DNA from: an uncultured Nitrososphaerota archaeon
GTDB taxonomy: Archaea > Korarchaeota > Korarchaeia > Korarchaeales > Korarchaeaceae
DNA: 33,269 nucleotides
NCBI GenBank assembly: GCA_964618805.1
Contig: CAZUBM010000022.1
Location: forward strand, 1 to 33,269
Reading direction: 5' to 3'
Shown here: piece by piece, positions 1 through 17,033 of the stretch
Layout: every line of letters begins with the position of its first letter
How positions within the stretch are numbered: the stretch's first letter is position 1
The notes under the pieces: model-generated
Seen by the model: the letters and a program-made list of their open reading frames with translations, nothing else
Database searches by the model: none
What the model was told of the DNA's origin: nothing
Program-made: the position numbers and the translations under genes

Positions 1-126
1 AAAGATAAAGCCGTGTTTAAAGCTTACGTATTAAAGAGCGTGGGGATTATAGAATTTCTATCAGGCTGAGAGATATTTAAACAAATGTCAAAGATTTATT
101 TATGAACAGGATTCTGTAATGAGGAA

Positions 127-351
127 ATGGAAGATTTACTGAAAAGAATAGAGATTAACCCGGAAAAGCTTTTGGGAAAGCCCGTAATCAAAGGTACTAG
201 AATACCAGTACATTTAATTGTAGAACTCGTTGCAGAGGGACTTTCTCCCGAGGAGATCCTCAAGGAGTACCCTGAACTGGAGTTACAGGACATAAAAGCT
301 GCTTTGTTGTACGCAGCCAAGGTTCTAGAGAGGGAGATCATTGTCTCTTAA
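127..351 (+). CDS. DUF433 family antitoxin (orphan; toxin deleted)
   Basis: GKPVIKGTRIPV...ILKEYPEL..DIKAALLYA is the DUF433 signature. Confidence 0.92.
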   Translation: MEDLLKRIEINPEKLLGKPVIKGTRIPVHLIVELVAEGLSPEEILKEYPELELQDIKAALLYAAKVLEREIIVS

Positions 352-385
352 CATTCTCACGGATAGGAGAATCAGAGTTAGATGA
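341..385 (+). pseudogene. Deletion scar of a DUF5615 PIN-like toxin
   Basis: TTG overlapping the DUF433 stop reads (M)SLNILTDRRIRVR*. RRIRVR resembles DUF5615 C-termini, so start and tail look joined by an internal deletion. Confidence 0.5.
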
Positions 386-630
386 CCTTTTTATGAAAAT
401 ACGTAAGAATAGCCCATATCATTGCAAACTTATTCAAATAATCCTCTCTTAAAGCCATTCGGTGCTCGCTGAGAAAGAGCAGACAGCGAGATATAGGAGG
501 TGAGAACGTTAGAAGGAGCTTAGAGAAAGGAACAGAGAGATTGAGACTAAGGGAATCCTATGGAAGTTTATGTTGCTGATTACCAGAATATATGCTGTTT
601 CTTCATCCATAAGGAAAGGATCTGAAACAG

Positions 631-867
631 TTAGTTGTGAAGATACTTGCTGATCTTTGAGGAGATAAAGGCTGTTATAACTAACCTATCCCCTTTCTCA
701 ACCCTATAGATTACAACTAACACCTTTTCGTTTATCTTCTTCACAGCTCTCAGTTCCTCGTTCTGGATCCGTTTATCAGGATTGTCTAGGCATCGTTCCA
801 CCATGTCTCTGCTTATTCCTCTCTCTATCATTCTTTGGACAGCGTGCAAGGTGAACCTTAAGGTCAT
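631..867 (-). CDS. DUF4258 family RelE-like toxin
   Basis: FTLHAVQRMIERGIS...LVVIYR...VITAF; 4-nt overlap with the DUF2283 gene. Confidence 0.85.
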   Translation of the reverse strand: MTLRFTLHAVQRMIERGISRDMVERCLDNPDKRIQNEELRAVKKINEKVLVVIYRVEKGDRLVITAFISSKISKYLHN

Positions 868-1082
868 GGGCTCACCAGCGTCTCGATGCCCTCCCTAATC
901 ACCCTGCCGAGATCTATCCCTGACTTGGAGAAATTCAAGATCTCGACTCCTATAACTCCTTCATCGTCAAGATCCACTATGACTCCCTCCCTTATCTCCG
1001 TGCTCTCCTTGACTTTACCTTCTCTTATTCTAATGTATAAGGCATCAGCCACCTTGTCATAGCTAATGATTAGTCGGTTCAC
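864..1082 (-). CDS. DUF2283 family antitoxin
   Basis: YDKVADALYI...VDLDDEGVIGVEILN motif. Confidence 0.9.
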   Translation of the reverse strand: MNRLIISYDKVADALYIRIREGKVKESTEIREGVIVDLDDEGVIGVEILNFSKSGIDLGRVIREGIETLVSP

Positions 1083-1260
1083 TTATGATCCCCTTTATTC
1101 AATTTTTCGAATATCCTAATTAACTATCGCCTTCGATATTCTCATGAATTTTTTAGCAACGCGCCAACCGTGCCTTAAGCTACTTCGAATGTAAACACGG
1201 CTGTAGTGTGTCCTAAGATGCTATAAGTTTTATATCTCTCGTACAAACAAAAATTGGATA

Positions 1261-1572
1261 ATGATGGAAGAAAGCACAATGATAGTCAAAAAAGAAGGGA
1301 TCTGCGGAGGATCAGCGAGGATAGCTGGGACGAGAATAGCTGTCTGGGAGGTAGTGTCTTGGCATAAGCTAGGCTGGAGCGAGGAAAAGATAGCAAGAGA
1401 GCTTTGTTTAAGGCCAGAGCAAGTTAAAGCAGCCCTAAAGTACTATGAGAGGCACAAGGAAGAGATAGGTGGTGAGATAGAGCAAGCAGAGACGTTAGAG
1501 GAGGAACTTAGCGAAAAGAGCAGAGAGGCTATAGAGAAATTAAAAGCTAAAAGGAGGGCAATGAGGGTTTAA
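1261..1572 (+). CDS. DUF433 family antitoxin
   Basis: ICGGSARIAGTRIAVWEVV...QVKAALKYY; TTTTATAT TATA-like box about 30 nt upstream. Confidence 0.9.
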   Translation: MMEESTMIVKKEGICGGSARIAGTRIAVWEVVSWHKLGWSEEKIARELCLRPEQVKAALKYYERHKEEIGGEIEQAETLEEELSEKSREAIEKLKAKRRAMRV

Positions 1573-1573
1573 T

Positions 1574-1780
1574 TTGCTTATTACCAAGCTATACGCTGAC
1601 GAGGATGTCCCTCTCCCCCTAATTAAAGCCTTAAGGAAATTAGGAGTTGACATCTTGAGGGCTCAAGAGGTAGGGCTCGTCGGAGCTAAAGACGAGGAGC
1701 AGCTGGTATGGGCTATAAGAATGGGTAGGGCCTTGCTCACCTTTAATATAAGGGATTTTCCAGCATTACAGTCAAGGTAA
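1574..1780 (+). pseudogene. DUF5615 PIN-like toxin, 3'-truncated
   Basis: KLYADEDVP...LRKLGVD...DEEQL...LLTFNIRDF, stopping at 68 aa where a HicB fragment begins. Confidence 0.8.
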
Positions 1781-1868
1781 GACTGTAGAGGAGGCATTAA
1801 AGAACCTGAAGGAGGCGATAGAGCTTTATCTAGAGGAAGATTCTGAAGCTAAAAACATCTGTTGTTAA
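1770..1868 (+). pseudogene. HicB/UPF0150 C-terminal fragment
   Basis: Reads SQGKTVEEALKNLKEAIELYLEEDSEA with no start codon. Confidence 0.8.
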
Positions 1869-1871
1869 AAT

Positions 1872-2741
1872 TCATTTTCTGAACCACCTCTTTTTGGCTA
1901 TTCTAAGATCTTTATCGCCAGCTTTGTTGCGGGGAAAGAGAAGATACGAGACAGCCCTTATCTTCCTATTATATCTTTTTAAGAAATTGAGACCTCCCCA
2001 AGATTCGAACTCATTGCTCATTTCTCTATAAACCAGCTCTGTAAGTCTTTCTTGTTTTTTCTCTTGAAGCCATCTTAAATAAGCATCCATTTTCTCAAGT
2101 TGTATTCTTGCAATTTCATACCCTTGCTCTAATCGTCTTCTTAGCAAGAAGTATGTTCTCCAGAATTCTTTTGGCGGCTTTATATCGGGGTCCTTTGGTT
2201 CTACTTCTCTCTCAGCGAGAGCATAAATTATTGGTGGAGGCTTTGTCATCTCAAGATATTCTCCTTCTCTGCAGAATTTCTTGTAAGCGCACCTTGAACA
2301 AATAGAACTAACTGGTTTTACAGAAGGAAGTACATTTTCGACAAGAGCTGCTCTCTTAATCTTCCAGATTTCTACTCCTATCTCCCTAAAATTAGGGATT
2401 ACTTCATTGAATTCCTCTACAGTCCCATATCTTGGGTTTATTAGTAAGGACTTTACAGGCCTGGCAAGCCTCATACCCCTAAAAGTTAAACCACTCAATT
2501 CCAAATCTCTGAGAAGAGAGTTATAAAATAGCAAATCTTCCTTCCCATCTTTAATTGAGCGTTTTAAATCTTTAGACGTTTTAATTTCGATAAGAACAGG
2601 CCCTTCGGCCGTCTCAAGCAAATAGTCTGGTGCTGAGAAGGAGCAGATGTCTTTGTTTATTAATCGGGGCTTGTACACTTCAAGGATCTCTGGTAGCTTC
2701 TCAGCAAGAATTCCAGCAGTCTTAAAGAATGATTTCTTCAT
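1872..2741 (-). CDS. Cas4-like PD-(D/E)XK nuclease, catalytic and C-terminal part
   Basis: APDYLL...LIEIKT (PD..ExK) and CSRCAYKKFC (CxxCxxxxxC). Becomes in-frame with 2722-3192 if one A is removed from the A8 run at 2745-2752. Confidence 0.8.
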   Translation of the reverse strand: MKKSFFKTAGILAEKLPEILEVYKPRLINKDICSFSAPDYLLETAEGPVLIEIKTSKDLKRSIKDGKEDLLFYNSLLRDLELSGLTFRGMRLARPVKSLLINPRYGTVEEFNEVIPNFREIGVEIWKIKRAALVENVLPSVKPVSSICSRCAYKKFCREGEYLEMTKPPPIIYALAEREVEPKDPDIKPPKEFWRTYFLLRRRLEQGYEIARIQLEKMDAYLRWLQEKKQERLTELVYREMSNEFESWGGLNFLKRYNRKIRAVSYLLFPRNKAGDKDLRIAKKRWFRK

Positions 2742-3192
2742 ATGTTTTTTTTAACTCTTCCATATACTTTTCGTAGTAATCTGATAGAGATGTGGAGGCG
2801 GTCTTCTCAACATAAATAGCTTTCTTAACTAGGACATCAATTACTTTTTCCTCCTCTTCTTCCTCTCCAGCTGTTAAATTCTGTATTTCTGAGGCCTCTA
2901 CCATAGCTCTCTTTAGCAACTGAGATTCAGAAATTTCTTCTTTTTCTCTTGATTTTAAGTCCTGAAAAGAAGCTATAATTTCAAGTATCTCTTCAGTTAA
3001 TTTCTCGCCAGCCATCCCTATGAAGTATGAGGGAGGTGGTGGGATTTCTTTTCTCTCTATCTGTCTTGTTTTAAAACCTAGTACTTTGAGCGCTATTCGC
3101 TTGAGACATCTCAAATAGTCTTTGAAATCCTCACGATTTACTGTAAATCTGAAATTTAAAGGATAGAATTCATTAGGTCTCTTTTCATCCAT
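2722..3192 (-). CDS. N-terminal part of the Cas4-like nuclease
   Basis: DFKDYLRCLKR (first Fe-S Cys motif) and the IGMAGE helix; overlaps the downstream ORF at a homopolymer run. Confidence 0.65.
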   Translation of the reverse strand: MDEKRPNEFYPLNFRFTVNREDFKDYLRCLKRIALKVLGFKTRQIERKEIPPPPSYFIGMAGEKLTEEILEIIASFQDLKSREKEEISESQLLKRAMVEASEIQNLTAGEEEEEEKVIDVLVKKAIYVEKTASTSLSDYYEKYMEELKKTYEEIIL

Positions 3193-3377
3193 TAACTAAT
3201 CCCTCTTATAGGGCATCTTTTTCAACAATAATTCTGCTAAGGAGTAAATTGAAAACATTTTTTGATATAGTTTTTTCCCTGCTGCTGTAGCCTATCACTT
3301 ATTCTTATCCAATAATCACTAAGTCCAATAGATTCACAGAGCGAACCATAATTAAATAGTGAGAATCTTTATACAAG

Positions 3378-4874
3378 ATGTCAACTGAACCCGAATCCAG
3401 AGTCAAAGAGTTAGAGGGTTCCCTAAAAGATCTCAAGTTAATTGGGGTTGTTGGCAGCACGACTTTCACAACTCAAGCTCCTTTAATCCTAGTTGAAGGT
3501 ATGGAAAGAGAAGTTAGAGAGGAGGATCTTGTCGTTATCAAAAACCTAAATGGTGGCCTGATACTTGCAGTATGTCGTGAGGGAGCTGGCATAAACGACA
3601 ACTTAAGAGTTGGTTCTTACAGCCCAGGGGTAGCATACGTAAGGGCTACAGGCAGAAGTCCCTCGAGCGCAAAGGAGAGCTACCACTTCATCCTATCGTT
3701 CATTGGCCTAATAGAAGAAGATGGTATGAAAACAAATGATCTGCTTGTTGCTCCTGGATCCCCCGTCTACCTGTTCAGAGGATCGGAACACAACCCCTTG
3801 GAGTACATAAGACCGAAGAAATGCGTGGTTGGAGGTCATTTAATTGGAGAAAGAAGCTGGAGTGTTCCATTTGATTCTACGTTCATACCTTATCACGTAG
3901 GGGTTTTTGGAGCAACAGGTTCAGGGAAATCCTTTTTGGCAAGATATCTGCTCATACCACTTCTAAAAGAGGCTGGTTATGGTGTTTTGGTGCTTGATTG
4001 GGCAGGAGTTGATTATGCACCATATCTTGAAAAGGTAATACCTGTGGTTGAAATAGAGTGCGATCCTGACTCCATCATATCTTACATCATAGAGAAGACT
4101 AGGAATTTCGGATATAAGACGGAATCTGCCACCATAATTGCTCCACTAGAGAACACGATAATTCACGAGTGGAAAGATCTCCTCAAGCATAAGGATGGTG
4201 AGTATGTACGCAACGAATTAAAGAGGCGCATTAAGGAGAAGATACAAGGCGATAGAGAATATGATAGGCTGAGGGACTACGAAAAGCTGGCAATAAGCAG
4301 GGTAGAAAGCGGGTTCGAAAAGATCTCGGCAGAAGAAATGGAGACTCTGATGGGCGAAAAGAAGGTAAGCGAAATACTGCCTTCCTCTAAAGAAGTTTGC
4401 GTAATTGATATGCATGGAGTTGAGGCATCGAGAAAGCTCTCGTTTTTCCTTACCTTGGCGGAACATCTTCTCTCTGAGATGAGCAAGGGCAAAGATCTAA
4501 ATCTGGCCCTAGTTATAGATGAAGGACCACAGTACTGCCCTTTCGAGCCTAAAGGCCTTCAGTATTACACTACAGAGAAGATAAAGAACATGTGCGCTTT
4601 AGGAAGGAAGCACCAGCTTTGCATGGTCCTAATCTCGCAGGGGATAGCTGGAGAGATAGGGATAAATGCTGCAGTTAGGAGGAACCTTAACACGTGGTTC
4701 ATAGGACAAATACACCCGATAGACTTAGAGGAGGCTGGTAAGAGGTTATCTCCTTATGGTATAAGGCCAGAGACTCTCCTTTACCTAGATCCAGGGGAGT
4801 TCTACTTCATTGGTAAGATGAACCCATCGCCTACACCCCTCTTAATATCCTTCGAGATAGAGGAGGGAGCCTAG
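3378..4874 (+). CDS. herA: HerA/FtsK-family helicase ATPase (DUF87)
   Basis: N-terminal barrel, HVGVFGATGSGKS Walker A, VLDW, LVIDEG Walker B, GRK arginine finger, ISQ motif. Confidence 0.9.
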   Translation: MSTEPESRVKELEGSLKDLKLIGVVGSTTFTTQAPLILVEGMEREVREEDLVVIKNLNGGLILAVCREGAGINDNLRVGSYSPGVAYVRATGRSPSSAKESYHFILSFIGLIEEDGMKTNDLLVAPGSPVYLFRGSEHNPLEYIRPKKCVVGGHLIGERSWSVPFDSTFIPYHVGVFGATGSGKSFLARYLLIPLLKEAGYGVLVLDWAGVDYAPYLEKVIPVVEIECDPDSIISYIIEKTRNFGYKTESATIIAPLENTIIHEWKDLLKHKDGEYVRNELKRRIKEKIQGDREYDRLRDYEKLAISRVESGFEKISAEEMETLMGEKKVSEILPSSKEVCVIDMHGVEASRKLSFFLTLAEHLLSEMSKGKDLNLALVIDEGPQYCPFEPKGLQYYTTEKIKNMCALGRKHQLCMVLISQGIAGEIGINAAVRRNLNTWFIGQIHPIDLEEAGKRLSPYGIRPETLLYLDPGEFYFIGKMNPSPTPLLISFEIEEGA

Positions 4875-6068
4875 TTGGAAGAAAATCCATTATTGCTGCT
4901 TCCAAGGCCAATAGTTGAGGCTTTATTCGAGAGCGCTGATAAGGAAGCTGGAAGAATAATGCAAAGGCTGAGAAAGCTAGAGAAATCGATAGAAGGGATA
5001 AAAGAGCTATTTAGGTTCACTAAGATATCTGGTGAGAAATATGGGCGTGTTGTTGCTGCAGATGGGGCAATGTCCTCGGGTCCAAGTAGCAGGTTGGGTT
5101 CTGGATTTGCTATTTATACTGCTGGTCACATGGCGTTCGACGGTAAAGAGCTGGTAGGAGAAAGGTATTATGCTGGCTCTCTAAGTTGGATCGAGGACAG
5201 AAAATCCTTCAAGGCACTTCTCAAGTTGCTTATGGCTTATGCTGAGAGGAAAGCTGCCTTAGAAGCTTATGAGACATACGGACCAGATTACATACTGCTT
5301 GATGGTCCATTCTTCTACTTTAGAGGGGGTTGTAGATACCTAAGGGCTGTTAAGATAGGCGTTGATGGAATAGAAACCGGATTGGATCTGATAAGGCGTG
5401 TAAGGGACATGACTTTAGAGCTAATGAGAACGGGGAAAGCGGTATGCGTAATCAGGAGGAGCCTTATAAGAGCAATAGATGGTTGGCTTCTCTACAATTA
5501 TGGGGAGGAATCATGTCTAAGAGCCAGGGATAAGCATATTTTGACGTTATTAATGCCTCCAAACTCTATCTGGGCGTATAAAGATTTGTTGGGCGAGGAG
5601 GGAGCGTTGCTATACGCTACGTTCTATCGGTTTTATAGAAGGTGGAGGCAAGAGGGTAGATCTCCTAGGATGCTCATGGATATGAAAGAAGACTTAATGG
5701 AACAGTCGAGGAGGGACTGGAGTAGGAAGTTCCTCTTAGATCTGGACATAGAAATTAGCAAGGTTCCTAAAACTGAGAGATATTACGTCCGTTACTCTTC
5801 TGAAGCCCCTCCTTTCGAGGTGGAAGTTGTTGAGGGCACGGATGTATCTGACTTCGCTCGTTACTTCTTAGGATTCAATAACCAAGCGACTGGCCTGCCT
5901 TTTCCAGTAGATCTGATAGATGGTATGGTATCGCTTCCTCGAGGATCAACAACGGCCTTTACCAGAGAGGTTGAGGCTAGACTTATCAGAGAGCGTAGCA
6001 TTCCAAACAAGGCTGCAATCTCTTGCTACTTTACCTATCTAAACCCGCAGAAGGAGGAATTTATCTAA
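4875..6068 (+). CDS. nurA: NurA-family nuclease
   Basis: VVAADG, AER, ILLDGP motifs and C-terminal GLPFPVDLID; abuts herA. Confidence 0.85.
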   Translation: MEENPLLLLPRPIVEALFESADKEAGRIMQRLRKLEKSIEGIKELFRFTKISGEKYGRVVAADGAMSSGPSSRLGSGFAIYTAGHMAFDGKELVGERYYAGSLSWIEDRKSFKALLKLLMAYAERKAALEAYETYGPDYILLDGPFFYFRGGCRYLRAVKIGVDGIETGLDLIRRVRDMTLELMRTGKAVCVIRRSLIRAIDGWLLYNYGEESCLRARDKHILTLLMPPNSIWAYKDLLGEEGALLYATFYRFYRRWRQEGRSPRMLMDMKEDLMEQSRRDWSRKFLLDLDIEISKVPKTERYYVRYSSEAPPFEVEVVEGTDVSDFARYFLGFNNQATGLPFPVDLIDGMVSLPRGSTTAFTREVEARLIRERSIPNKAAISCYFTYLNPQKEEFI

Positions 6069-6189
6069 TAGCTATTTCCGCTTAATGCTATCATAACAGA
6101 CCTGTTAGAGCAGATATTACCAAACTTACGTTATATCTGATTCATGAGACTAGTGAGGTTTTATTGTTAATTAGTTAAACGAAAAGCTT

Positions 6190-6543
6190 ATGAGTACTAG
6201 CCACTATGGCTATAGTGGTATGGGGATAGTACTACAAACTCCAAAGGAACCTCGTGAGATAAAGGACCTCATTAAGAGCGTCCGCTCTAGGCTTGGAGCT
6301 AATAGGAGCATAAAATACGACAGCTTTGCTATCTGGTCCTTCAACCAATTGCCAAAATACCTTTGGCAATCGTGGAAAGAGATATTGAGGGAAAATAAAG
6401 TTTCCTGGCAGGATTTTCTTGCTATCCTCAAGTTACATACCAAAGACATGATAGATTGGGCCCTTTACGATAGGATAAGCTGGGAAGAGCTAGTAAGCAG
6501 GATAACGGAAACGATCGCTCAAAACTTTGAGGAGGAGGTCTGA
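6190..6543 (+). CDS. Small Trp-rich helical protein of unknown function (start may be 6220)
   Basis: Clean 117-aa ORF co-oriented between nurA and the MTase; no family recognised. Confidence 0.7.
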   Translation: MSTSHYGYSGMGIVLQTPKEPREIKDLIKSVRSRLGANRSIKYDSFAIWSFNQLPKYLWQSWKEILRENKVSWQDFLAILKLHTKDMIDWALYDRISWEELVSRITETIAQNFEEEV

Positions 6544-6643
6544 TGAAGAGCATTCCTTTCTTTCTGTCAAGTGAAAACTGCTCTGGCACAGTAGCTACAA
6601 TATACGCAATAGCTCCCTTAGCTAAAAATAAAGGGGGTTGTAG

Positions 6644-7624
6644 ATGCAGGAGATAGAAAGAGAGGTTGCCACCCATCTTAGCCGAGAGGATCTCAAGTGG
6701 CTACTTCAGCGACTTGCAGATAGGCCAGAAAGAGAGGTTGTAATGATAGCAAAGGATCCAACTCTCTGCTCAAGAGTTGAAGAAATTGTTTCGAAAATAC
6801 CTACATGGCATAAACTGTACTTAGGTGACGCTAGAAACCTAAACATGATCAAAGATAAGACAGTGCATCTTATCGTTACATCTCCGCCCTACTGGACCAT
6901 CAAAAAGTACAAGCCATTAGAAGGACAATTGGGAGTTATTAGGGACTATACTAAGTTCTTAGAAGAGTTACGTAAAGCATGGAGTGAGGCTTATCGCGTA
7001 TTAGTGCCTGGAGGCAGGTTAGTTGTCGTAGTTGGTGATATCCTTCTCCCCAGAAGAAGAGAAGGAAGGCACATGGTGATCCCCCTTCATGCTGACATCC
7101 AGAGGCAGTGCGTAGACCTGGGCTTTGAGAACCTTGCACCTATAATCTGGTACAAGATCGGGAACGTCAGCAGAGAGGTTGCAGGCAGAGGTTTCTTGGG
7201 GAAGCCTTATCAGCCCAACGCCATCGTGAAGAACGACATAGAGTACATACTGATGTTTAGGAAACCAGGATATAGGAGCGTATCTCGCGCGAGGATGAAG
7301 CTAAGCGTAATTCCGGAGGAGAAGTTCAAGGAATGGTTTGTTCAAGTCTGGACAATACCAGGAGCCTCTACAACAAAGCATCCGGCGCCTTTCCCACTAG
7401 AGCTTGCTGAAAGGTTAGTTAGGATGTTCAGTTTCGTTGGAGATGTCGTGCTGGATCCGTTTGTGGGGACAGGAACCACAATGGTGGCAGCAGCTAAGTG
7501 GGGAAGGAACAGCATAGGAGTGGAGATAGATCCCGACTTCGTGAGTCTGGCTTGGGAAAGGGTCAGGAAGGAGACGGTATCGTTATTTGGAAGGGCTGAG
7601 TTAGAACTCCACGGGTTGCAATGA
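6644..7624 (+). CDS. Beta-class N4/N6 DNA methyltransferase (probably m4C)
   Basis: TSPPY motif IV precedes HPAPFP and LDPFVGTGTT motif I; GVEID. Confidence 0.93.
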   Translation: MQEIEREVATHLSREDLKWLLQRLADRPEREVVMIAKDPTLCSRVEEIVSKIPTWHKLYLGDARNLNMIKDKTVHLIVTSPPYWTIKKYKPLEGQLGVIRDYTKFLEELRKAWSEAYRVLVPGGRLVVVVGDILLPRRREGRHMVIPLHADIQRQCVDLGFENLAPIIWYKIGNVSREVAGRGFLGKPYQPNAIVKNDIEYILMFRKPGYRSVSRARMKLSVIPEEKFKEWFVQVWTIPGASTTKHPAPFPLELAERLVRMFSFVGDVVLDPFVGTGTTMVAAAKWGRNSIGVEIDPDFVSLAWERVRKETVSLFGRAELELHGLQ

Positions 7625-8337
7625 GCGATCCTTTTGATGCTTGGGGAAGGCTAAACAGAAATATAGTTGAGGAGAGACTCTCTTTTACATCTATACAAGA
7701 GGAGCTACTTCGGATATTATGGAGGTTAGATGAACGTTGGAAGAAGGGGGCAGTAGATCAGGGTCTTTACAGGCAGAAGGGCAACTACTATCGGGACACG
7801 ATAATTTCTCTCATAAGGGCAAGATGCCTGCTTCAGGGGGTTGATGTAGTGTTAAAGGAAAGAACGCTTCAGGGAAGGACAGATGTACACAAGGTGGATT
7901 TCGCCTTTCCTGAGTCTGGCGACCCCATTGTAGCTGGAGAAGTCAAAGCAATAGGAAGTCCGCCACACGAATCATATCCTGAGCGGCCAATCGGCATAGA
8001 TGTAGATAAGAGGATAAAGGAAGTAAAGTACACTCCTGTGGATCTCAAGAGGAGGACAGATCCAACCATCTCTAAGCCATGGCAAGAATGGGTGAAGCGC
8101 ACAAAACCTAAGTTTTACGTATTTTGGATAATGAGAAGAGGTGTCCGGAATTCTGTGGATAAGATCTTGAGTAAGGTGGCTTCAATCCTCGAGTACGCTA
8201 ATGGCGTGTCGGCGGTGATTTATGAGGAGCGAGAGGGATCATACGTATACATCTTTACTGGTGGGCACGGAATAAGCGCAGTGGATGGCCTTGTTAGGGA
8301 AATATGTACTGAAATATTCTCCAATTTATCTCTCTAA
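7621..8337 (+). CDS. Putative type II restriction endonuclease, PD-(D/E)XK
   Basis: HKVDFAF...AGEVKA; ATGA overlap with the MTase. Confidence 0.72.
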   Translation: MSDPFDAWGRLNRNIVEERLSFTSIQEELLRILWRLDERWKKGAVDQGLYRQKGNYYRDTIISLIRARCLLQGVDVVLKERTLQGRTDVHKVDFAFPESGDPIVAGEVKAIGSPPHESYPERPIGIDVDKRIKEVKYTPVDLKRRTDPTISKPWQEWVKRTKPKFYVFWIMRRGVRNSVDKILSKVASILEYANGVSAVIYEEREGSYVYIFTGGHGISAVDGLVREICTEIFSNLSL

Positions 8338-8425
8338 TTTGGATCTAAAGAATGAAAGATAGGAACTATCTCGCTTTTTCTAACAATAATCAGTAAAGTC
8401 CGAGGCTTAAAGTCTACAAGAGATC

Positions 8426-9030
8426 TTATAAGGACTCTATCTTGATTAAAAGATACTTGAAGATACCGTTTTTTCTTTTCAATTCTGAGTAATTTCTCCA
8501 GTTGAATTTATACCTCCTTTTCAAGATTATTGGATCTTCTCTGCCCTCCATGGTTCCTTTACTTGTTCCCTCCCCCACCTTAGTGCCTTTTTACTTTCTG
8601 GGATAACTCTCCCATCGTGTATTCTGAAATCCTTGTCATAAGTGTCACGTTTTCTCGGAGATACCCAATACAACGGATCGTTTGTAAGGAAGATAGCATA
8701 ACCAACAGCCTTTGGAAGTTTCTCAACGCACTCTTCAAGTCTTGATAGATCCTTCATGAAGTCATACCTGCCAACATCGTTGGCTGATTGGTTCTTCAAC
8801 CTAAATCGTTCATGATCTATTTCTATTTCAACCTCTCTTGTCTTGTACTTCAATTCTATTAGTGCCATGTTTTTCCTATCATCTTGAAGGAAAATGTCAA
8901 TGTAAATTTCCTTGTTATCCAACTCAATTCTTCTTTCAGGCCTTATATTCACATTTGGATGCTTTTCATGTATTTCTTCAAAAGCTAACCATATTGAAAG
9001 AAATACACTTCAGAAAAGTTGGCAATTTCT
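8426..9030 (-). pseudogene. Frameshifted PD-(D/E)XK nuclease (core ORF 8527-8952)
   Basis: YIDIF...LIELKYKT, RYDFMKDLSRLE, AIFLTND. The C-terminus EGTSKGTMEGREDPIIL...FKYLLIKI continues in another frame after a G5 run; 5' end degenerate. Confidence 0.7.
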
Positions 9031-9039
9031 TCATTCCTA

Positions 9040-9378
9040 AAAAGTCGGTCACGTTTCCTGATACGGTCTAGGATAGCCTTTATTCAGTTTTGGACATCTT
9101 CTATAGTGCCTGTTCCATCTACTTCTCAACGCCTTTTTTTGGCATAATACTCAATAAGAAGATAGGATTCTCTTTCGTATATCTCAAGTCTTATCTTAAT
9201 AACATCTTCTTTATCGTCCTCTCTTTAGTAAAGATGTCCACCACAAAAGTCGCAGATCTCATCATTTTTTGGAGGGTTGAATATGAGATGATAAATTGCG
9301 CCGCATCTCTCGCATATTCTCCTAGATGACAGACGTCTGATGAGTTCTTCCTTGTCCACCTTAAGAAAGGATCACGTG
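9040..9378 (-). pseudogene. adk: Adenylate kinase C-terminal half with zinc LID domain
   Basis: [48 protein letters not shown]...IRLEIYE...LIEYY...VDGTGTIEDV, with internal stops and no P-loop. Confidence 0.85.
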
Positions 9379-9419
9379 CGCTTATCGAAACAAGGCTAAA
9401 GAAAGTAAAATAGACTCTT

Positions 9420-11254
9420 CTACCGGATGGGAACTCCTTCTCTCTCTAATGCCCTCAGGATTTCTTCCAAGCCGAGTTCTATTAGTTTAGCTTTTGTCGG
9501 AATTCCAGTCTCTAGGTCCCATCTCCTTTCAGCATAGTAGTTTTCTAACGCAGCATCAAATTCTTTTTTATCTACTATTCCTCCTGATCGTAAGGGTTCG
9601 TTGTAAAATCTCTCTGGTAAGACATCGCTTCTGCGGCTAACCCCCTCTCTTACACCGAAACACCTTTGAACATTCCAAATCCTTTCTCCAATTCTTAGCA
9701 GATCATCAGGGCTAACCTTCCATCCGACAACATATTCAATAATCTTGGAAAAGAAATCTAGATACGTATGATAAGAAAGCCATGGAAATATATGAAAACA
9801 GATACATAGAGAATCTAATAATACTGACGAAAACTGTTGCTCGGTTGTACAACCAGTTTCATGACGTGCACCACTTTCAGTTACATAAGGCAGACCAAGC
9901 GCATAAGTGGGAGAGTGCTCCTTTCTCACTCTTGGATCTGCAAATGGAAGCTCCATACCCTTCACGTGCATAGCATATTTCTCAGCACCCTTACCTATTC
10001 TCTCAGCAGCTATTCTAGAACCCTCAGCAAGTACATCTCCAATCCCCTCTCTGTAAGCTATGGCCTTTATTAGATCAAGCATAGCTTCCCCATTTCCCCA
10101 TTTTAAGTCTAGATCGTTTAATTCGCTCTTCTTAAGAATACCTTTCTCATAACACTCCATCGCAAACGAAATCACGCCTCCAGTAGATATTGTATCCATT
10201 CCTAACTCATCACAGAGCGAATTAGCTTTTAATACGATTTCTGGGTCAAACACTCCACAGTTGGTGCCGAGAGCTGCCACATTTTCTAACGAGGGAGATC
10301 TACCAAGAGTGCCAGCATATTTTCCATCTCTTATAAGCGCTATGTGCTTATCAAACCCATAGCAGCCAAAACATGCCCATTTCCTGACGTAAAATAGCTT
10401 CTCGAAATTGTAACTACTTATTTTCCAATACTCTGGGTGTGTGGCCTCCTGAAAGTTTCTAACTTTGGCTCCTTCTACATTAATGTAATAAGAGTAGCGA
10501 CAGGGGTTGTCCCACCTGCTATAAATGTAAAGCTCATTGGGATTTTGACCGAGCTTTGCGCTCCTCATGTTTCTCAGATGTTCCATAAGCATGTCATAGG
10601 CCTTGCGCAGTCCTTCCCTATTTAATACTGGGAACCCCTTTGTTCCGTAAACTGCTACAGCCTTTAGTTTTTTTGAGCCCATAACTGCACCAAGACCTGC
10701 ACGTCCATATGCAGCATAATACGCTGTCATAACATTCGCAAACCTTACTAGTCTCTCCCCAGCTGGACCTATGCAAAGAATCTGTAAGTGTGGATCATTT
10801 AAATCCTTTTTGATCGTTTCTATTGTTTCGGTAACGTTCAAATTCCATAAAAATGTTGCATCCTTTAATTCGCAGTTACCATCTACTACATGCAAATAAA
10901 CAGGTTTCTTAGACTTTCCAACAAAGATTATGCCGTCATATCCAGCAAACTTCAGCATGGGTCCAAAGTAACCGCCTGCACTAGCTTGTCCCACTAACCT
11001 AGTCAAAGGAGACTTTGAAACGAGATGAATGCGTGTACAAGGAAGACCAGTGAGAGGTCTTCCCATTAGGATCATGGGGTTCTCGGGAGCGAATGGATCG
11101 ATTCCCTTTTTAGTCATCCTGAAGAGAAAATAGGTTCCAAGACCACGTCCGCCCATGAACTTCATCTCAGTAGTAAGGTCAATCGATTTTTTTCGATGCT
11201 TCCTTCTTCTAAGTTTACCTCTAGAATTTTTCCCGTATAGCCGCCAACATGCAC
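9420..11254 (-). CDS. aor: Aldehyde:ferredoxin oxidoreductase family protein (main ORF 9420-11165; N-terminus frameshifted)
   Basis: GYTGKILEVNL (upstream frame), GGRGLG, KSPLT, LKFAGYD, IGPAGE, GRAGLGAVMGSKKLKA, CFGC, DELGMDTIS, VKGMELP. Adding one A to the A7 run at 11187-11193 joins the frames. Confidence 0.9.
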
Positions 11255-11261
11255 TTGAGAC

Positions 11262-11708
11262 TCACCTCTTGTTTGAATGATGGTAAACAGTTCTCCTAAG
11301 TATCTGGGCAATTTTTTCAGGAGGATCGAAAATTTTCTCTCCAGGTTCGCCCCAGATGTTTGGACCAAAGCGACATTCTAGTGCTCCTGTGGGACAGGCT
11401 TTGACGCATCGAATCTCACCATCGCAAAGATCACAGATGAGAGGATACTTAAGTTTGGGATGGAAAAATATCGCTTTTGCAGGGCAGGCTTCTGAACAAC
11501 TACCACAAGTAATGCATTTCGTTTTATCTACAATAATTGCGCCAGTCTTATCACTAATGGATATTGCTGCTACCGGACAGGCTTCTATGCAGGGAGCTTC
11601 GTACCCAAATGAACTTGAGCAGCCCCTGCAAGAAACAGGTATATCTATCCCTGGATAATGGAAAACTCTTATTCTCGATAGAGCTGGGTTTATAACTCCG
11701 TAATGGAA
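11262..11708 (-). pseudogene. 4Fe-4S dicluster electron-transfer subunit of the AOR operon, 5'-truncated
   Basis: Not in the ORF track. Reads FHYGVINPALSRIRV...CRGC...PCIEACP...CITCGSCSEACP...CDLCDG..RCVKACPTGAL with no start codon. Confidence 0.85.
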
Positions 11709-13679
11709 GGAGCTATTGAGATAGCAAAATTACGGTTTTGGCTCTGGCTAATTTCTCAGGTAGATCCAATTAAAGTTGAAGGTAAGAAATTAGAGACTTT
11801 ACCTAATTTAGATTTCAATTTAATGGTTGGGAATTCCCTAATTGGTTTCGTTAATATCGAAGACATTGAGTTTGATTTTGTAAGAAAGCAGAAAACCCTG
11901 ACTTCCTGGTTGGGAGAAAGTAAGATAGAATGGTTAAAAAATCTGGCAAAAGAAAAAAAGAAATTTAAAACCTTACCTGCTCCAATAGCCATAAAGTTAA
12001 GGGAGAAATTAAATAAGGAGTTAGAAGCTGCTAGGGAATTCTTGAATGAAGAATTTTATAACAGTATTAGTACGATAATTATAAACTATATTAGGAGCAT
12101 TCAGAAAAAATATAATAAATTTAGAAAAAATAATAAAGAGATTGAAAAATTAAAAGCTGAAATTAAAAGCACGTTCGGTAAAGACTTATTTAACAAAATA
12201 ATTACTGTAAACTTGAATAATAAAGAAGAAATGAAAGCCCTTGGCTACGAACTATTTAAATATCTTAAACCATTTCATTGGGGATTTGAATTCTATGAAG
12301 TGTTTGATCTTGAAAGATCTAGCGATGAAAGAGGATTTGATGTGATAATTGGGAATCCACCTCATGGTAACCTCCTTAGCGACATCGAAAAGATGTGGAT
12401 TAGGAAGATTCATAAATACTCTCAACCTAACAATATAGCAGAAGTTTTCTTAGAAAGATGCTTTAGTCAGCTTAAAATTCATGGCAGAATAGGTTATATT
12501 ATCCCAAAAACCATCGGATTTTATCATTCTTGGAATAAAATAAGAGACTTAATTCTAAATGGCCATCTATTAGAGAGCATTTTAGATGTAGGTATTGGTT
12601 TCATCGGAGTAATCGCCGAACAGTTATGTATTATAATCCAAAAAATTTCTTCTCATGATAAAGAAAGGATCAAAGAAAACAATGTACGAATATATGTAGG
12701 AGAACCGTTAAAGTCGGCAACTCATGGAAAGCAAATAAAATTTGTCGGAAATGTACCTCAAACTTTCATGCAAATGCATAATGTGCTCATATTTAGACCG
12801 TTGAACCGCATAGAAAGAGACATAATTAAACACATAGACACTCATTCAACTAAGTTTAGAGAAATATATGAAAGAGCATTTCGTGGTCTTTTTATCTATG
12901 AAAAGGAGAAAAGTAAATATATTGGGAAAGGGTCCGTTTTCTTTATAGAAAAAGAACCTGCTATTCAACAATTTTATGTAAAAGATTGGACAACTATAAT
13001 GATAAAACCTTTATGGAAGAAGAAAGTTAAAGAAATTCTACAACCAAAGCTAATCTTTAAAGTTTTAAGGGGAAGTAGGATTGTGGTTTTCTGCGATTAT
13101 GAGGGAAAATTTCTTACGACAAGCAATATAAGTAACGTTGTATTGAAGGATCAATATAAGCATCTTTTATCCTCTTTAGAGGTGATTCTTAATTCACCTT
13201 TACTCTCTTTTTATGCCCAGAAAATGTTGTTTAGTGAAACAACGGAAAGTGCAAGGCATTGGGATGATCCTTATGTAGGTGAATTACCTATAATAATTCC
13301 TTCGAAACCTTTTAGAATAGCAGCAAGTCAACTCGGGCACTATCTCCACTTTTTGAAAAAATATTATTGGGATAAATTCCTAAGTAAAAATTGTAAGGGC
13401 TTAGAAATTGAAAATCTACTTAACGAACTCACGCGGATTGTCAATTGCTTAGTTTATGAATTGTATTTTAAAAAAAAATTCAAACAAAACGGAATAAAAA
13501 CAGAACTTCTTAAATTAGTAAAGCAATATTTTAGAGACACCTCTGATCTTAAATCAGATATCCAAAGACTCCAGGTCATCAAAGAAGTTGTTGAAAATAT
13601 CAAAAACGATAAAAGAATCATGGATTTGATAAGTAGAATAAAATCTCATCCTTGGGTTAGGGTTATTGAGGGGCGCTAA
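11703..13679 (+). pseudogene. Type IIG/Eco57I-like RM enzyme, C-terminal half (MTase motif IV and TRD)
   Basis: AIEIAKLRFWL, LPNLDFN..GNSL, PFHW..EF, GFDVIIGNPPH and a TaqI-C-like TRD. Lacks motif I and the REase domain; visibly AT-rich. Confidence 0.8.
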
Positions 13680-13807
13680 AAGATGAAGCCGAAAAGTTCA
13701 AGTAGTTTAATTCTTTGCTTAGAGATTACATTCTCATTTTCGTGAAACGCACCTTTCACGCAACCATTAGATATAAGTTTAGGCCTTCTTTCCAATGGGA
13801 AAAAGAG

Positions 13808-14014
13808 ATGGCTATTATTGCAATCCTATGGAAAGAGGAGGACATGTATGTAATTCAAGACGTTAACACGGGAGTTACAACGCAGGGAGAAACGCTAGAA
13901 AAAGCAATTGAAAATTTAAAGGAGGCCGTCTCTTTATATCTAGAAGAGGCATCTGAAGAAGAGTTAGGGCTTCAAAACAGGGAGATAGTTGCCATTCTGA
14001 GGATAGAAGGCTGA
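13808..14014 (+). CDS. HicB/UPF0150 antitoxin (orphan; MKLP stub of HicA at 14019)
   Basis: ILWKEEDMYV...VTTQGETLEKAIENLKEAVSLYLEE. Confidence 0.85.
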   Translation: MAIIAILWKEEDMYVIQDVNTGVTTQGETLEKAIENLKEAVSLYLEEASEEELGLQNREIVAILRIEG

Positions 14015-14114
14015 TCTAATGAAACTACCTTCTTGGAGTTTCCCTCTCTAATCGCCCTTAACAGCGATAAGCTTAAGGAAGAGGTTTGAGCTGAGCTCTG
14101 TCAAGCCTAAGAGT

Positions 14115-14538
14115 CTAGTCGGTTATCCTTTTTACGAATGGGATGTTATCGAAGTGCTTATCAAAGCTGTAAACCTCTTTAATACCCTTCTTCTTGCATA
14201 TTATCGAGGCTAACGCATCATTAGGACTTACCCTATATCTCTCCGATATTACAAGCGATTCTTCGTAGTCTCCTCTTTCAACACCACATATCTCCAAGTT
14301 GGTCATCGCTAGCAAGCTTTCTAGTAGTTCCAGACTTTTAGAAAGACCAGATCTTGCTTCAACTATATTTATTATCTCAGATAGGTGGACAACCGATGTT
14401 AGAACTCTCTCGCCTTTATCTACTCTTCTTAGCATCTCTTTAGCCTTCTCCTTAGCTTTGGCTTCTTTTTCAGGTAGCCTCTTTTTTTGGTTTCAAATAT
14501 GCGTACAGAAAGACGGATGAGTCAAGGTACCTAACCAT
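14115..14538 (-). pseudogene. vapC: VapC PIN toxin, frameshifted paralogue of 17293-17715
   Basis: MVRYLDSSVFL start at 14538; A7 run at 14482-14488 where the paralogue has A6; PNDAL and YSFDKHFD motifs. Confidence 0.85.
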
Positions 14539-15574
14539 ACAAGGCCTCCCGAACCTTGTGGACATCTGAGAAGTCTTCTACTTCAACGCGCGCACTTTCT
14601 AATGCCCTTCTCAGCACTTTCTCGAAGCTTTTCTCATCATGAGGTCTTCCTTCATCCATACTCCTTCTTATTTCGGGCCATATTTCTCTGCAATAATCTT
14701 TCAATCCTTTTAGGAGGAGATCACCTCTGAACCAATTGTTAGATACGGGAATCAGTCTATATAGGGTCCTGCGCCACGCTTCTAGCATTGTAAACGGTCT
14801 TAGCATGAACTCAGATGCTGAGAAAACATTGCATTTTCCCTCCCCAATTTTCTTGAGGGAGTTAAGCCATTTAACTCCTTCATCACATCTCATGAGGTGA
14901 TGATCAACTATGAGGCTTCCGCATGAATTTACCAGTTTTGATGCCCTTGAAAGGTAGCTCTTCATGTATTCTCTGTCTAATCTGTAGAGGGAGGGACCAT
15001 CGGCTATTATAAAATCCGGATTTATCCTCTTGGCAGCTCTGATCACTTCCCAGCTTGAAATATCCGCATCTGAGAGGTGCAACAATGTTCCATCTTTCCT
15101 CACGATGGTACCTAGGACCATGGTATTCGATCTTCCTGTGTGAGGAAAGGGACCGATAAACTCCAGCAGGCCATCTCCCACACCCGGTTTAGCTTCAACC
15201 ATTTGATCACCGAACCTCCTCTTTAATGCCGTAAACCTTATTCTCTCTACTCCTCTGCAGAATTTCTCAGCCTTTACCCAAATTCTAGCATCGCTGTTGG
15301 AAGGAAGTACCTCTATTCCCAATTGAAACGGATTTGGATTCAGTAAAGGGATATGATCTCCATGAAGATGGCTTATAATTATATCCTCAGCGCTCTCCCA
15401 TGCGCTAACTATCTTACCTTTAACTTCATCTCCAACGACCGCTTGAACTGGGTGAGGATGAAGATTATAGCGGGAGAATCCCAATGCTACTCCTGGATCT
15501 ATTAATATTCTATCTATGGATGTAGAGAGGCCCCTAACTCCGAGGGTCTCTGTTCCGAGTATCTCTATCTCCAT
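14531..15574 (-). CDS. MBL-fold metallo-hydrolase (UPF0282-like) with a fused antitoxin tail
   Basis: ETLGVRG, IDPGVALG, ISHLHGDH, PH, SD, DHHLMR. The last ~18 aa match the C-terminus of AbrB 17708-17935. Confidence 0.85.
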   Translation of the reverse strand: MEIEILGTETLGVRGLSTSIDRILIDPGVALGFSRYNLHPHPVQAVVGDEVKGKIVSAWESAEDIIISHLHGDHIPLLNPNPFQLGIEVLPSNSDARIWVKAEKFCRGVERIRFTALKRRFGDQMVEAKPGVGDGLLEFIGPFPHTGRSNTMVLGTIVRKDGTLLHLSDADISSWEVIRAAKRINPDFIIADGPSLYRLDREYMKSYLSRASKLVNSCGSLIVDHHLMRCDEGVKWLNSLKKIGEGKCNVFSASEFMLRPFTMLEAWRRTLYRLIPVSNNWFRGDLLLKGLKDYCREIWPEIRRSMDEGRPHDEKSFEKVLRRALESARVEVEDFSDVHKVREALYG

Positions 15575-15890
15575 TCCTTATTACATTCCATTGTTAACTT
15601 AAATGAGTTTGGTCTAAGATTCAGCTAAACAGCACATGGTATGCTCAGTTAAGGGGCAAGTACTGCAGTCATGAGATCAAATCTCCATAGGAAGTTACCT
15701 GGGTTGAATGGAAAAAACCAAAGCTAGCATTATAAAGGGAGGAAGAGGGTAGAAATTCCTCCGCACGATTTTGAAAGAGATGTGCGGATTAGCATTGGTA
15801 GCCGATAGATCAACGACTTGAGCCAAAGAACATGAACGAAGAGTTGAAGAAAAGCTATAATTTATAAACTATAATCTGTTAATTACAGTT

Positions 15891-16097
15891 ATGTCCCAAA
15901 AGACCGTACAGGTAGGAGAAAGCACTTATAGATTACTTAAAAGGCTAAAAAGGAAAATGGGGGCCAGAAGCTTCGGAGAAGTGATTGAGAAACTCGCTCT
16001 AAAGGAACTAGGCATTGACGACAGCATGTTTGGTGTCGATAAGGGGAGGCTCACCCCCTTCAAGAAGGAAGACAGGATGGAGGATAGGACATGGTAG
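15891..16097 (+). CDS. vapB: VapB-family antitoxin
   Basis: KTVQV.ESTY..L..LK...SFGEVI..L; SMFGVD; overlaps the PIN gene. Confidence 0.85.
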   Translation: MSQKTVQVGESTYRLLKRLKRKMGARSFGEVIEKLALKELGIDDSMFGVDKGRLTPFKKEDRMEDRTW

Positions 16098-16495
16098 TGT
16101 TCGACACATATGCCTGGATCGAGTACTTCATCGGGAGTGAGAAAGGACGGAAGGTTAGGGAATTTCTCATAAAAGAAGATGGTAAGACGCCTTCGATAGT
16201 TCTAGCCGAGATAGCGAGGAAGTACTTGAGAGAGGGGTTTGAGAAGGGAGAAATCAGGAAGAGGCTGGAGTTCATCGCCGCCAGAACCGAAATCATCAAT
16301 ATAGACGTGAGGATTTCGATGAAAGCAGCTGAACTTTATCTCAGGCTTCTTGACCACGCCAAGAAAGGGGGTTTAAGGACTCCAAGTTTGGCAGACGCCT
16401 TAATCTATGCCATGGCTTTGCTGAGCGGAGAACGCCTTTTAACGGGAGATAAGCTGTTCAAGGGACTGACTAAAGTGGAATATATAGCAGACTAG
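16091..16495 (+). CDS. vapC: VapC PIN-domain toxin
   Basis: VFDTYAWIEY, LAEI, SLADALI, LLTGDKLF. Confidence 0.92.
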   Translation: MVVFDTYAWIEYFIGSEKGRKVREFLIKEDGKTPSIVLAEIARKYLREGFEKGEIRKRLEFIAARTEIINIDVRISMKAAELYLRLLDHAKKGGLRTPSLADALIYAMALLSGERLLTGDKLFKGLTKVEYIAD

Positions 16496-16570
16496 TTAAA
16501 TTCTTAAGATAAAGTTATTTCCAGCCTTAAGCTTATTCGTGAAAAGCTCCCTTCACGAAAGTTGGTAGAT

Positions 16571-16834
16571 TCATACGCGTCTATATGCTTTTTCCCTTCT
16601 TCTTATCCTTAAAACAACAACCTTTCTTCTCTTCTTATCCACAAGATAGACTATCCTTATGTCGGCAACTCTTACTCTGTAAATCCTTTCTCTCCCTCTG
16701 AGCTTCTCGTATGGAAGGGAAAATGGATCTTCCTCTAAGGAACGTAAAACCTCGATCACTTTCTTCCGAAGCCTCTTTTCCATCAGCTCTAAGTTCTTAA
16801 TTTCTCTTTTCTTAACCTCTACAGCCCAAGGCAA
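16571..16834 (-). CDS. relE: RelE/ParE-family toxin
   Basis: YEKLRG..IYRVRVADIRIVY...RRREKAY. Confidence 0.9.
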   Translation of the reverse strand: MPWAVEVKKREIKNLELMEKRLRKKVIEVLRSLEEDPFSLPYEKLRGRERIYRVRVADIRIVYLVDKKRRKVVVLRIRRREKAYRRV

Positions 16835-16841
16835 GACTTTT

Positions 16842-17033
16842 TCACTCCTCTATTTCTGAAATGGGAACTGTATCGAGCTCTCCTTTTTCGTAAGCTTCGA
16901 TGTCTCTGTCTAGTTCCGCAAGCTCTTCCTTGGTGAGAGAAAAGAAGCCCATGAAGTTTTCTATTCTCTCTGCAAGATGTTCAAGCTCCTTTCTTATTGC
17001 TTTGAGTTCCTTGACGATCTCCTCTAAGGACAT
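16842..17033 (-). CDS. RelB-like coiled-coil antitoxin
   Basis: Small acidic ORF directly upstream of relE; paralogue at 30672-30863. Confidence 0.75.
   Translation of the reverse strand: MSLEEIVKELKAIRKELEHLAERIENFMGFFSLTKEELAELDRDIEAYEKGELDTVPISEIEE

Follow-up and report, generated by a model that had tools for sequence, protein, structure and literature searches.

The window analysed here is a stretch of 33,269 nucleotides which makes up contig C22 (CAZUBM010000022.1) of an archaeal genome (GCA_964618805.1; 2.18 Mb in 62 contigs), whose relatives include Candidatus Methanodesulfokora and Korarchaeum metagenome-assembled genomes (MAGs). Between positions 1872 and 8337 it carries a Cas4-like nuclease gene, the genes of a HerA-type ATPase and a NurA-type nuclease, a small open reading frame (ORF) of 117 amino acids (aa) and a restriction-modification (RM) pair, which a first-pass annotation, made from the letters alone, had regarded as five parts of one defence locus. 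All ORFs of that annotation are present, with exactly the coordinates it gave. As far as the sequence tells, the HerA-NurA pair is the only part of the stretch which is both unusual and intact, and it is the main subject of this text.

The HerA-NurA pair and its family

3378-4874, plus strand: herA, a HerA-type hexameric ATPase of 498 aa (PF01935/DUF87 E 4.3e-21, 76.5 bits against a cut-off of 23.2)
4875-6068, plus strand: nurA, a NurA-type nuclease of 397 aa (PF09376, 22.5 bits against a cut-off of 21)

The two genes lie on the same strand, with the start of nurA being the first base after the herA stop, and the Cas4-like gene runs divergently from the minus strand, just as the first-pass annotation had described. 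The HerA bears a Walker A motif GATGSGKS and a Walker B motif VIDE, both invariant in 30 sequences. When the profile of its family is compared with the PDB, the best sequence matches are an ATP-binding protein (9c1m, 4.9e-11) and a HerA (8xau, 2.1e-8), and the HerA of T. kodakarensis is also reached (9x1l, 7.5e-5); among the PADLOC models, mad8 (E 1.2e-14) and HerA (E 2.9e-10) are matched, and no match to the N-terminal HAS barrel (PF09378) was obtained at E<=0.01 in a sequence scan. As for NurA, the PF09376 match covers only residues 101-163 (50 residues) and no PADLOC model was matched; a profile of 43 NurA sequences reaches the S. solfataricus NurA 2ygk with an E of 2.8e-6. Moreover, the AlphaFold2 (AF2) model of the window NurA, with a predicted local distance difference test score (pLDDT) of 92.2, retrieves in Foldseek 2ygk (E 4.5e-12), the T. 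kodakarensis HerA-NurA (9x1m_G, 4.8e-9), a TdpAB chain (8wfd_G, 5.7e-8) and the NurA structure 3taz (2.3e-7). The protein keeps all 28 columns that are invariant in the family, including D63, E96, E124, D143, D219, E317, D346, D349, E365 and E367; the NurA motifs I and II, taken as they are defined in a review (PMC13748450), correspond to D63-G64 and D143-G144, and both are invariant in 43 sequences including that of the window. On these grounds, the assignment of 4875-6068 as NurA is firm.

In the whole genome of the window there are four NurA and ten DUF87 matches. In fact, contig C1 bears an operon of nurA (451 aa), herA (560 aa), a Metallophos gene (Mre11-like, 386 aa) and an SMC_N/AAA_23/SbcC gene (Rad50-like, 688 aa), which adjoins a reverse-gyrase-like ORF (Toprim/topoisomerase/helicase), and two further stand-alone HerA-NurA pairs are found on C17 and C11. 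Since the canonical nurA-herA-mre11-rad50 operon and two other pairs are thus kept elsewhere, the pair in the window is an extra copy. The first-pass annotation had taken the pair as accessory and had suggested looking through the genome for a second, canonical operon of herA, nurA, mre11 and rad50, and the operon on C1 bears it out. Compared with the C1 copy, the window HerA is only 24.6% identical (E 2.4e-6), and BLAST finds nothing significant between the two NurAs. On its own account, the HerA of C11 (L015:5009-7657, 882 aa) harbours an intein with a helix-turn-helix domain inside, and its NurA partner lies directly upstream.

The family to which the window pair belongs was then followed across archaeal genomes. 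Among the genomes of 40 other relatives, an intact orthologue with 45-48% identity is present in seven (G006, G010, G013, G016, G019, G014 and G030) and a broken or partial one in two (G008, with an in-frame TAG, and G011), and none was found in the four genomes of the same genus, which have a completeness of 71-90%. In genus g3 the family is patchy, with a strong match in 5 of 10 genomes. In a scan of species representatives the family was found at 42 loci, which belong to Bathyarchaeia, Hecatellales, Nitrososphaeria-labelled MAGs, Korarchaeum, Brockarchaeota and Caldarchaeum, four of them being contigs already in the sample of relatives; HerA precedes and abuts NurA in all 42, two of the HerAs being cut by the contig end. 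Furthermore, 44 of the 401 genomes in the class of G057 have a match, and from these 13 further loci in 12 genomes were taken; the two genes abut each other in 11 of them, and a contig end truncates the remaining two. This makes a total of 59 distinct loci of the HerA-NurA family besides the window.

The HerA of the window is 65% identical to that of locus L050, and no other korarchaeal HerA exceeds 48% identity with it; the nearest relatives of the window NurA, at 51-66%, are L050 (66%), L052, L051, G271 and G066. In the NurA trees, which were built as a quick IQ-TREE and a FastTree, the window groups with L050, G271, L052, G066, L051 and G366, and the korarchaeal NurAs in the tree (L053, L056, L063, L065 and L067) all fall in the other clade; the divergent clade of the window is otherwise seen in Bathyarchaeia-like MAGs. 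Moreover, within window positions 1-20000 the DNA common to the same-genus genomes is limited to 9067-9366, 13738-14029 and 17148-19998, together with short matches of 66-85% inside the AFOR gene at 9472-10775. Because the same-genus genomes are without a copy, the korarchaeal relatives are distant, and the window DNA is mostly unshared with the same genus, the pair has probably been acquired horizontally and lies in variable DNA.

The flanks of the family loci are mostly occupied by metabolic or informational genes, which vary from lineage to lineage, such as those for a THUMP tRNA methylase, nitroreductase, FKBP, UPF0179, glutamine synthetase (GlnA), ThiG, SRP19, Sua5, transporters and aminotransferases; toxin-antitoxin (TA), AbiE, TnpB and AAA_14/DUF4143 genes are occasional neighbours. 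Several members merit a separate mention. In two korarchaeal genomes, at L028:12421-14959 (G019) and L034:3368-5861 (G016), the pair is followed by two conserved genes of about 240 and 600 aa, which have no Pfam match and a weak one to SspC (3.3e-4), and in G019 an MNT-HEPN pair is inserted within this stretch of L028. In a Bathyarchaeia locus (L086:11785-14566), a second NurA (PF09376 E 1.4e-20) and an ORF of 532 aa stand directly downstream of the family pair. In-frame stop codons occur in the family members at G008:C1:11191-12638, G376:C75:2723-3904 and G074:C3:17360-18541, and these stops suggest that the pair is dispensable in those three genomes.

The genes around the pair

In the region 1872-8337 the pair is surrounded by genes whose own relatives live elsewhere. 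TA genes flank the region and crowd the whole 33-kb contig, with eight full-length PIN-domain ORFs and a truncated ninth, ParE, HicA, MNT, DUF4258/DUF2283 and DUF433/DUF5615, so that the picture of a locus set among TA genes holds. Our domain scan took in, for the first 13.7 kb, selected ORFs with >=50 aa and, for the rest of the contig, ORFs with >=60 aa that do not overlap; among these ORFs there is no Mre11, Rad50 or Cas1 domain, and likewise no Metallophos or SMC domain, and a search of the window for repeats and tRNAs yielded no repeat array and no tRNA, which agrees with the earlier statement that mre11, rad50, cas1 and an array are lacking here. More importantly for the proposed unity of the locus, the Cas4-like gene, its 5' part ORF156, ORF117 and the restriction endonuclease (REase) gene have no homologue at any of the 59 other HerA-NurA loci (tblastn E<=1e-3). 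Co-occurrence with the pair, which the first-pass annotation itself had set as the test, thus fails for the Cas4-like gene, ORF117 and the REase; the sole recurring neighbour is a DNA methylase, at 7 of 59 loci.

The Cas4-like gene is broken, and consists of the following features:

1872-2741, minus strand: 3' fragment of the Cas4-like gene, 289 aa (PDDEXK_1 E 2.6e-4; PADLOC Cas4 E 7.5e-5; TIGR00372 16.9 bits)
2722-3192, minus strand: 5' fragment of the Cas4-like gene, ORF156, 156 aa, aligning to the first ~150 residues of P0002, P0004, P0006, P0009 and P0010
2745-2752, minus strand: A8 homopolymer at which the frame of the Cas4-like gene is lost, as seen from the sequence and from two ORFs in different frames

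The 289-aa ORF aligns to residues ~150-435 of full-length homologues, and ORF156, which sits between it and herA, aligns as the N-terminal part of the same gene; the two lie in different frames and overlap by 20 nucleotides (nt) at the A8 run, and both are matched by the family profile, a TAA standing between the two matches. The intact homologues range from 407 to 456 aa. For example, 6 of 10 database homologues of the 289-aa ORF have 422-456 aa and open with an ORF156-like MSFTASREDFKLYLTCPRKLA segment, G004 of the same genus has an uninterrupted frame of 433 aa, and among nine metagenome loci with ORFs listed a single ORF of 407-448 aa spans both parts in seven, one of the others being cut by the contig end and one being only a fragment. 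Window 1053-9000, the A8 site included, is also found in a Logan contig (12,086 nt, depth 22.4), with 0 differences between the two; since they agree at that site, the frameshift is not an artefact of one assembler, though the sequencing run of this contig may be the source of the window DNA, which would make these the same reads and not a resequencing. The first-pass annotation had seen a PD-(D/E)XK nuclease with four cysteines. The cysteines are real (C33, C148, C151 and C157), but the ORF is only the 3' two-thirds of a frameshifted gene. Its motifs read D39, E52-x-K54 and C148-x2-C151-x5-C157, where the family shows no variation at D39, E52, K54, C148, C151 and C157; the N-terminal one of the four predicted cluster cysteines falls in the ORF156 part, whose segment REDFKxYxxC corresponds to TCPRK in the homologues (a CPRK-type first cysteine). 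The match of the 289-aa ORF to PDDEXK_1 has 21.5 bits, under the 22-bit cut-off, and even a full-length homologue (P0006) gives a PADLOC Cas4 match of only 1.1e-6 and no Pfam match at 1e-5.

To follow this family elsewhere, 14 metagenome loci were fetched in a scan built on a 9-row alignment, and none of the 14 has a close HerA, NurA, ORF117, methyltransferase (MTase) or REase; the sole case of any kind is L045, where a distant DUF87 gene stands 3 kb off, past tRNA-modification genes. What does accompany the Cas4-like gene is a gene of ~215 aa resembling a PolB exonuclease, which follows it in 7 of 14 loci; the remaining loci mostly end too early to show it. This partner matches PF10108 (PolB-exonuclease-like) weakly in L038 (1.7e-7) and L047 (1.6e-5) and has no Pfam match in L036, L039 and L040; it was not found in the window genome at E<=0.01. 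In L036 and L040 the two genes lie between ribosomal-protein/Spt5 genes and NusA-KH/L7Ae/RNA-polymerase genes, and no cas1/cas2 or CRISPR array is present among the annotated neighbours in L036, L038, L039, L040, L045 and L047. In a sample of 43 genomes of the phylum the Cas4-like family occurs in two, the window genome and G004 only. Accordingly, the Cas4-like gene of the window reads as the frameshifted remnant of a different two-gene module. The unit itself, a Cas4-like protein of ~435 aa, for which Pfam gives no family at E<=1e-5, with its ~215-aa companion, is uncharacterised, and can be seen at L036:9584-11540, L039:267-2229, L040:3679-5638 and L038:49-1993.

Downstream of the pair are the ORF117 gene and the RM genes:

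6190-6543, plus strand: ORF117, 117 aa, small and all-helical with conserved tryptophans, 6 Trp in the ORF (family of 103 representatives; AF2 model)
6644-7624, plus strand: beta-class N4/N6 DNA MTase, 326 aa (PF01555 E 2.9e-42, 145.6 bits; PADLOC MTase_II E 6.2e-65)
7621-8337, plus strand: type II REase, 238 aa (PADLOC REase_II PDLC03576 E 4.7e-23)

In the MTase, SPPY stands ahead of FxGxG, which is the beta order, and together with the REase_II match this confirms the beta-class MTase and REase named in the first-pass annotation; the MTase also matches the PADLOC model mad2 (5.8e-19), and the start of the REase overlaps the MTase stop by 4 nt. There are 26 homologues of the REase, including one in an Archaeoglobus MAG and a Staphylothermus hellenicus protein that is named a restriction endonuclease in UniRef, and in the phylum sample the REase is found besides the window in G043 only. 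This genome (99% complete) has an MTase with 73% identity and an adjacent REase homologue (63% over residues 53-232, 54% over 4-55) that is split in two pieces by an in-frame TAG, lying between nucleotide-metabolism and ATP-sulfurylase genes; no HerA, NurA or ORF117 is present at this RM locus, and the only NurA match of G043 is a weak one (E 3.4e-8) located on a different contig. The MTase and REase therefore look like a self-contained type II RM system which moves as a unit.

With a limit of E<=1e-3 the ORF117 family comprises 103 cluster representatives, of which 34 reach <=1e-10, and it occurs in 10 of the 43 genomes of the phylum sample. The AF2 model (pLDDT 92.5) is a five-helix bundle, and the comparison with known structures gave no convincing relative, the best Foldseek match in the PDB having an E of 0.6 and the best VIA-align a Z of 5.8, tied with unrelated helical proteins. 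The domain is found fused to the N-terminus of Peptidase_S24 (LexA-type) and of 1,400-aa TPR-PIN (TPR-GreAB-C-PIN) proteins, and to the C-terminus of SF2 helicases, which hints at an adaptor role in binding nucleic acids or partners; examples are P0048, P0104, P0074 and P0100, and L104:1-1821 and L105:1435-3315. In nine other korarchaeal genomes its relatives never adjoin HerA-NurA; they adjoin AlaX-like, MPG glycosylase, pyruvate kinase and radical-SAM genes, and in the genomes that have both (G013, G010, G014 and G008) the ORF117 relative is on another contig or 260 kb off. ORF117 was also considered as a controller protein of the RM pair, and this was rejected, there being no homologue upstream of the G043 RM pair and unrelated neighbours elsewhere; likewise, the 120-aa ORF after nurA in L050 was tried as an analogue and has no similarity to it. 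Taken together, ORF117 belongs to a widespread unnamed family of helical domains with no conserved link to its neighbours. Short contigs in the Logan runs X3 and X4 are 90-95% relatives of window 4200-8100, from the 3' end of herA through the REase gene.

Readings of the locus

With these results the stretch is best explained, at a probability of roughly 0.55, as a mosaic of four unrelated modules in a TA- and RM-rich variable region, where an autonomous accessory shredder of DNA ends happens to lie beside an unrelated RM system. We infer the activities and the biological role by analogy with solved relatives. On this analogy (see also PMC12977600), a HerA hexamer would take up duplex DNA at a free end and drive it into a NurA dimer, where both strands would be degraded. 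The pair would work on its own, and its most likely job would be the clearing of linear DNA, either foreign or broken; because the standard nurA-herA-mre11-rad50 operon is kept elsewhere, such a job may be considered accessory. According to the same paper (PMC12977600), HerA-NurA of T. kodakarensis attacks DNA at its ends and degrades both strands, and the authors propose a possible destruction of foreign DNA or an antiviral role; stand-alone HerA-NurA pairs are described there as common in archaea, with repair against destruction of foreign DNA being debated. Also, a 2026 review (PMC13748450) mentions multiple uncharacterised NurA copies in some archaea. What the locus adds is an intact pair of a divergent clade, apparently acquired horizontally, in a genome with three others.

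Some observations weigh against a shredder that is independent of its neighbours. In two other studies, contigs from relatives with about 90-95% identity span the junctions of NurA with ORF117 and of ORF117 with the MTase, and therefore the arrangement is stable over a short evolutionary distance. In L050, the closest relative, the MTase is 55% identical to that of the window, falls in the same subfamily and has the same best PADLOC models. On the side of the window clade 7 of the 9 rows have a methylase, and none of the 34 rows opposite has one, in a quick tree that carries a long-branch warning, and since there are only 2-7 PF01555 matches per genome of 1-2 Mb for the methylase-bearing loci, chance adjacency should be rare.

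These last points lead to the reading that survives next best, in which the pair would be guarded by methylation: the beta-class methylase would mark self, HerA-NurA would destroy unmarked DNA from its ends, and the REase may supply ends. A PF01555 methylase is adjacent at the 7 of 59 loci in about 3-4 independent lineages, all belonging to the clade of the window, and the window, L050, L051, L052, L077 and L081-L084 stand on one side of a branch with a Shimodaira-Hasegawa-like approximate likelihood ratio test (SH-aLRT) value of 99 in the quick NurA tree. In L050 the methylase gene leads directly into herA on the same strand, so that MTase, herA and nurA are packed one way in the nearest relative; right after nurA in L077 and L081-L084 comes a convergent methylase gene from a different subfamily, downstream of an adenylate kinase gene; and in G376 a PF01555 gene follows nurA by 2.2 kb, in a methylase-rich genome with 17 matches. 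The Foldseek match of the NurA model to the TdpAB chain, and the matches of HerA to mad8 and of the MTase to mad2, go in the same direction. However, when 12 further genomes with clade-like NurA were examined prospectively, only one (again G376) had PF01555 on the same contig, a weak result in which several of the contigs are only 2.6-3.6 kb long. G141 has no methylase though it is nested among methylase-bearing rows, and L051 and L052 have none within 8-10 kb. The MTases are of different subfamilies in three arrangements, the adenylate kinase of L081-L084 points to a housekeeping setting, and the window MTase has its own overlapping REase and a 73% relative in an RM pair without HerA-NurA. 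Considering also that the association was spotted post hoc on a quick tree with the warning mentioned, we regard gating by methylation as unlikely. If it were true, it would be a new restriction-like mechanism in archaea, and a methyl-based counterpart of the phosphorothioate-based TdpABC; that only the clade of the window repeatedly adjoins DNA methylases is in any case a testable lead. Two further cases were set aside: the THUMP-UPF0020 genes upstream of herA in seven loci of an eight-locus cluster look like MTases in tblastn, but they are housekeeping genes of the tRNA-methylase type, and in the eighth locus (L074) a partial PF01555/D12-like ORF (631-1215) is 3.3 kb upstream of herA and was not counted as adjacent.

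Less likely still is that the pair is a plain second repair machine, namely a housekeeping paralogue for end processing with no role against foreign DNA and an incidental position. It would fit with most family loci lying amid metabolic or informational genes with lineage-conserved synteny, with G052 (3.4 Mb) having this type as its only Pfam-detectable NurA, and with L051 adjoining a Hel308-like helicase and MCM. On the other hand, the window copy comes on top of the canonical operon and two other pairs, is missing from the four same-genus genomes and lies in DNA unshared with them, the family is patchy in genus g3 as given above, and copies are broken in G008, G376 and G074. Finally, the idea of the first-pass annotation that Cas4-like nuclease, HerA-NurA, ORF117 and RM pair form one defence unit is very improbable, for while the genes physically adjoin in the window and all have DNA-related predicted activities, the Cas4-like, ORF117 and REase genes occur in 0/59 of the HerA-NurA loci and a close HerA or NurA in 0/14 of the Cas4-like ones, the Cas4-like gene is frameshifted, and ORF117 relatives stay apart from the pair in genomes having both, e.g. 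by 260 kb in G013. Adjacency in a TA- and RM-rich island is no evidence of a single system.

Comparison with known systems

The pair is nearest to the archaeal HerA-NurA complex (2ygk; 9x1l-9x1p), sharing with it the abutting HerA-type ATPase and NurA-type nuclease, the NurA fold, the DG motifs and Walker A/B. It differs in that it is not in an mre11/rad50 operon, has very low similarity to the canonical pair with a Pfam NurA match over 50 residues only, and lies in a variable region that is not in the same-genus genomes.

TdpABC, credited to An et al. (2025), is reportedly a phosphorothioate-dependent defence of thermophiles in which the modification shields self from a complex of HerA-like and NurA-like proteins, and 8wet and 8wfd are its structures. 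As there, the window has a HerA-like and NurA-like pair near a DNA-modifying enzyme, and the NurA model matches chain G; unlike there, the modifier is a methylase and not a phosphorothioation enzyme, and most loci of the family have no methylase. The HerA profile did not reach TdpA at E<=0.001, and no phosphorothioation gene was recognised near the window pair with PADLOC v2.0.0 (2023), which predates Tdp.

Another system with a methylase is MADS, described as an eight-gene methylation-associated defence system with a MAD7-MAD8 ATPase-nuclease module (PMC13662399). The window HerA matches mad8 and the MTase matches mad2, but no other mad gene was matched and NurA is without a PADLOC match; moreover the mad8 match is generic to HerA, because the canonical HerA on C1 matches mad8 even better (4.6e-24). 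Sir2-HerA and DUF4297-HerA are said to be anti-phage pairs of a HerA-family ATPase and an effector. The window too has a HerA-family ATPase paired with an effector nuclease, whereas the effector here is NurA and no Sir2 or DUF4297 domain is found in the Pfam and PADLOC scans of the window.

For the other genes, the RM pair agrees with type II systems with a beta-class N4/N6 methylase in its PF01555 domain with SPPY before FxGxG, its type II REase, the 4-nt overlap and the pairing kept in G043, with nothing unusual. The Cas4-like family resembles Cas4 (TIGR00372) in the PD-(D/E)XK motifs, the C...CX2CX5C pattern and weak hidden Markov model matches, but reaches only 16.9 bits against a cut-off of 65; its proteins, at ~435 aa, are enlarged by an additional middle region and by a helical extension of ~130 aa at the C-terminus, there are no cas genes or array nearby, its partner elsewhere is PolB-exo-like, and the copy here is frameshifted. 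From the locus as a whole, three points seem worth following, namely the clade-restricted link with methylases and two unnamed families, that of the Cas4-like gene, together with the exonuclease that accompanies it, and that of the ORF117 domain.

Elsewhere on the contig, an Eco57I-type methylase ORF lies at 11703-13679 with an ORF at 11356-11658 upstream, and its match to the type IIG REase-MTase models is confined to positions 581-852 of 1100, in their middle and C-terminal portion. The ORF may represent a truncated methylase, either type IIG or BREX- or DISARM-like.

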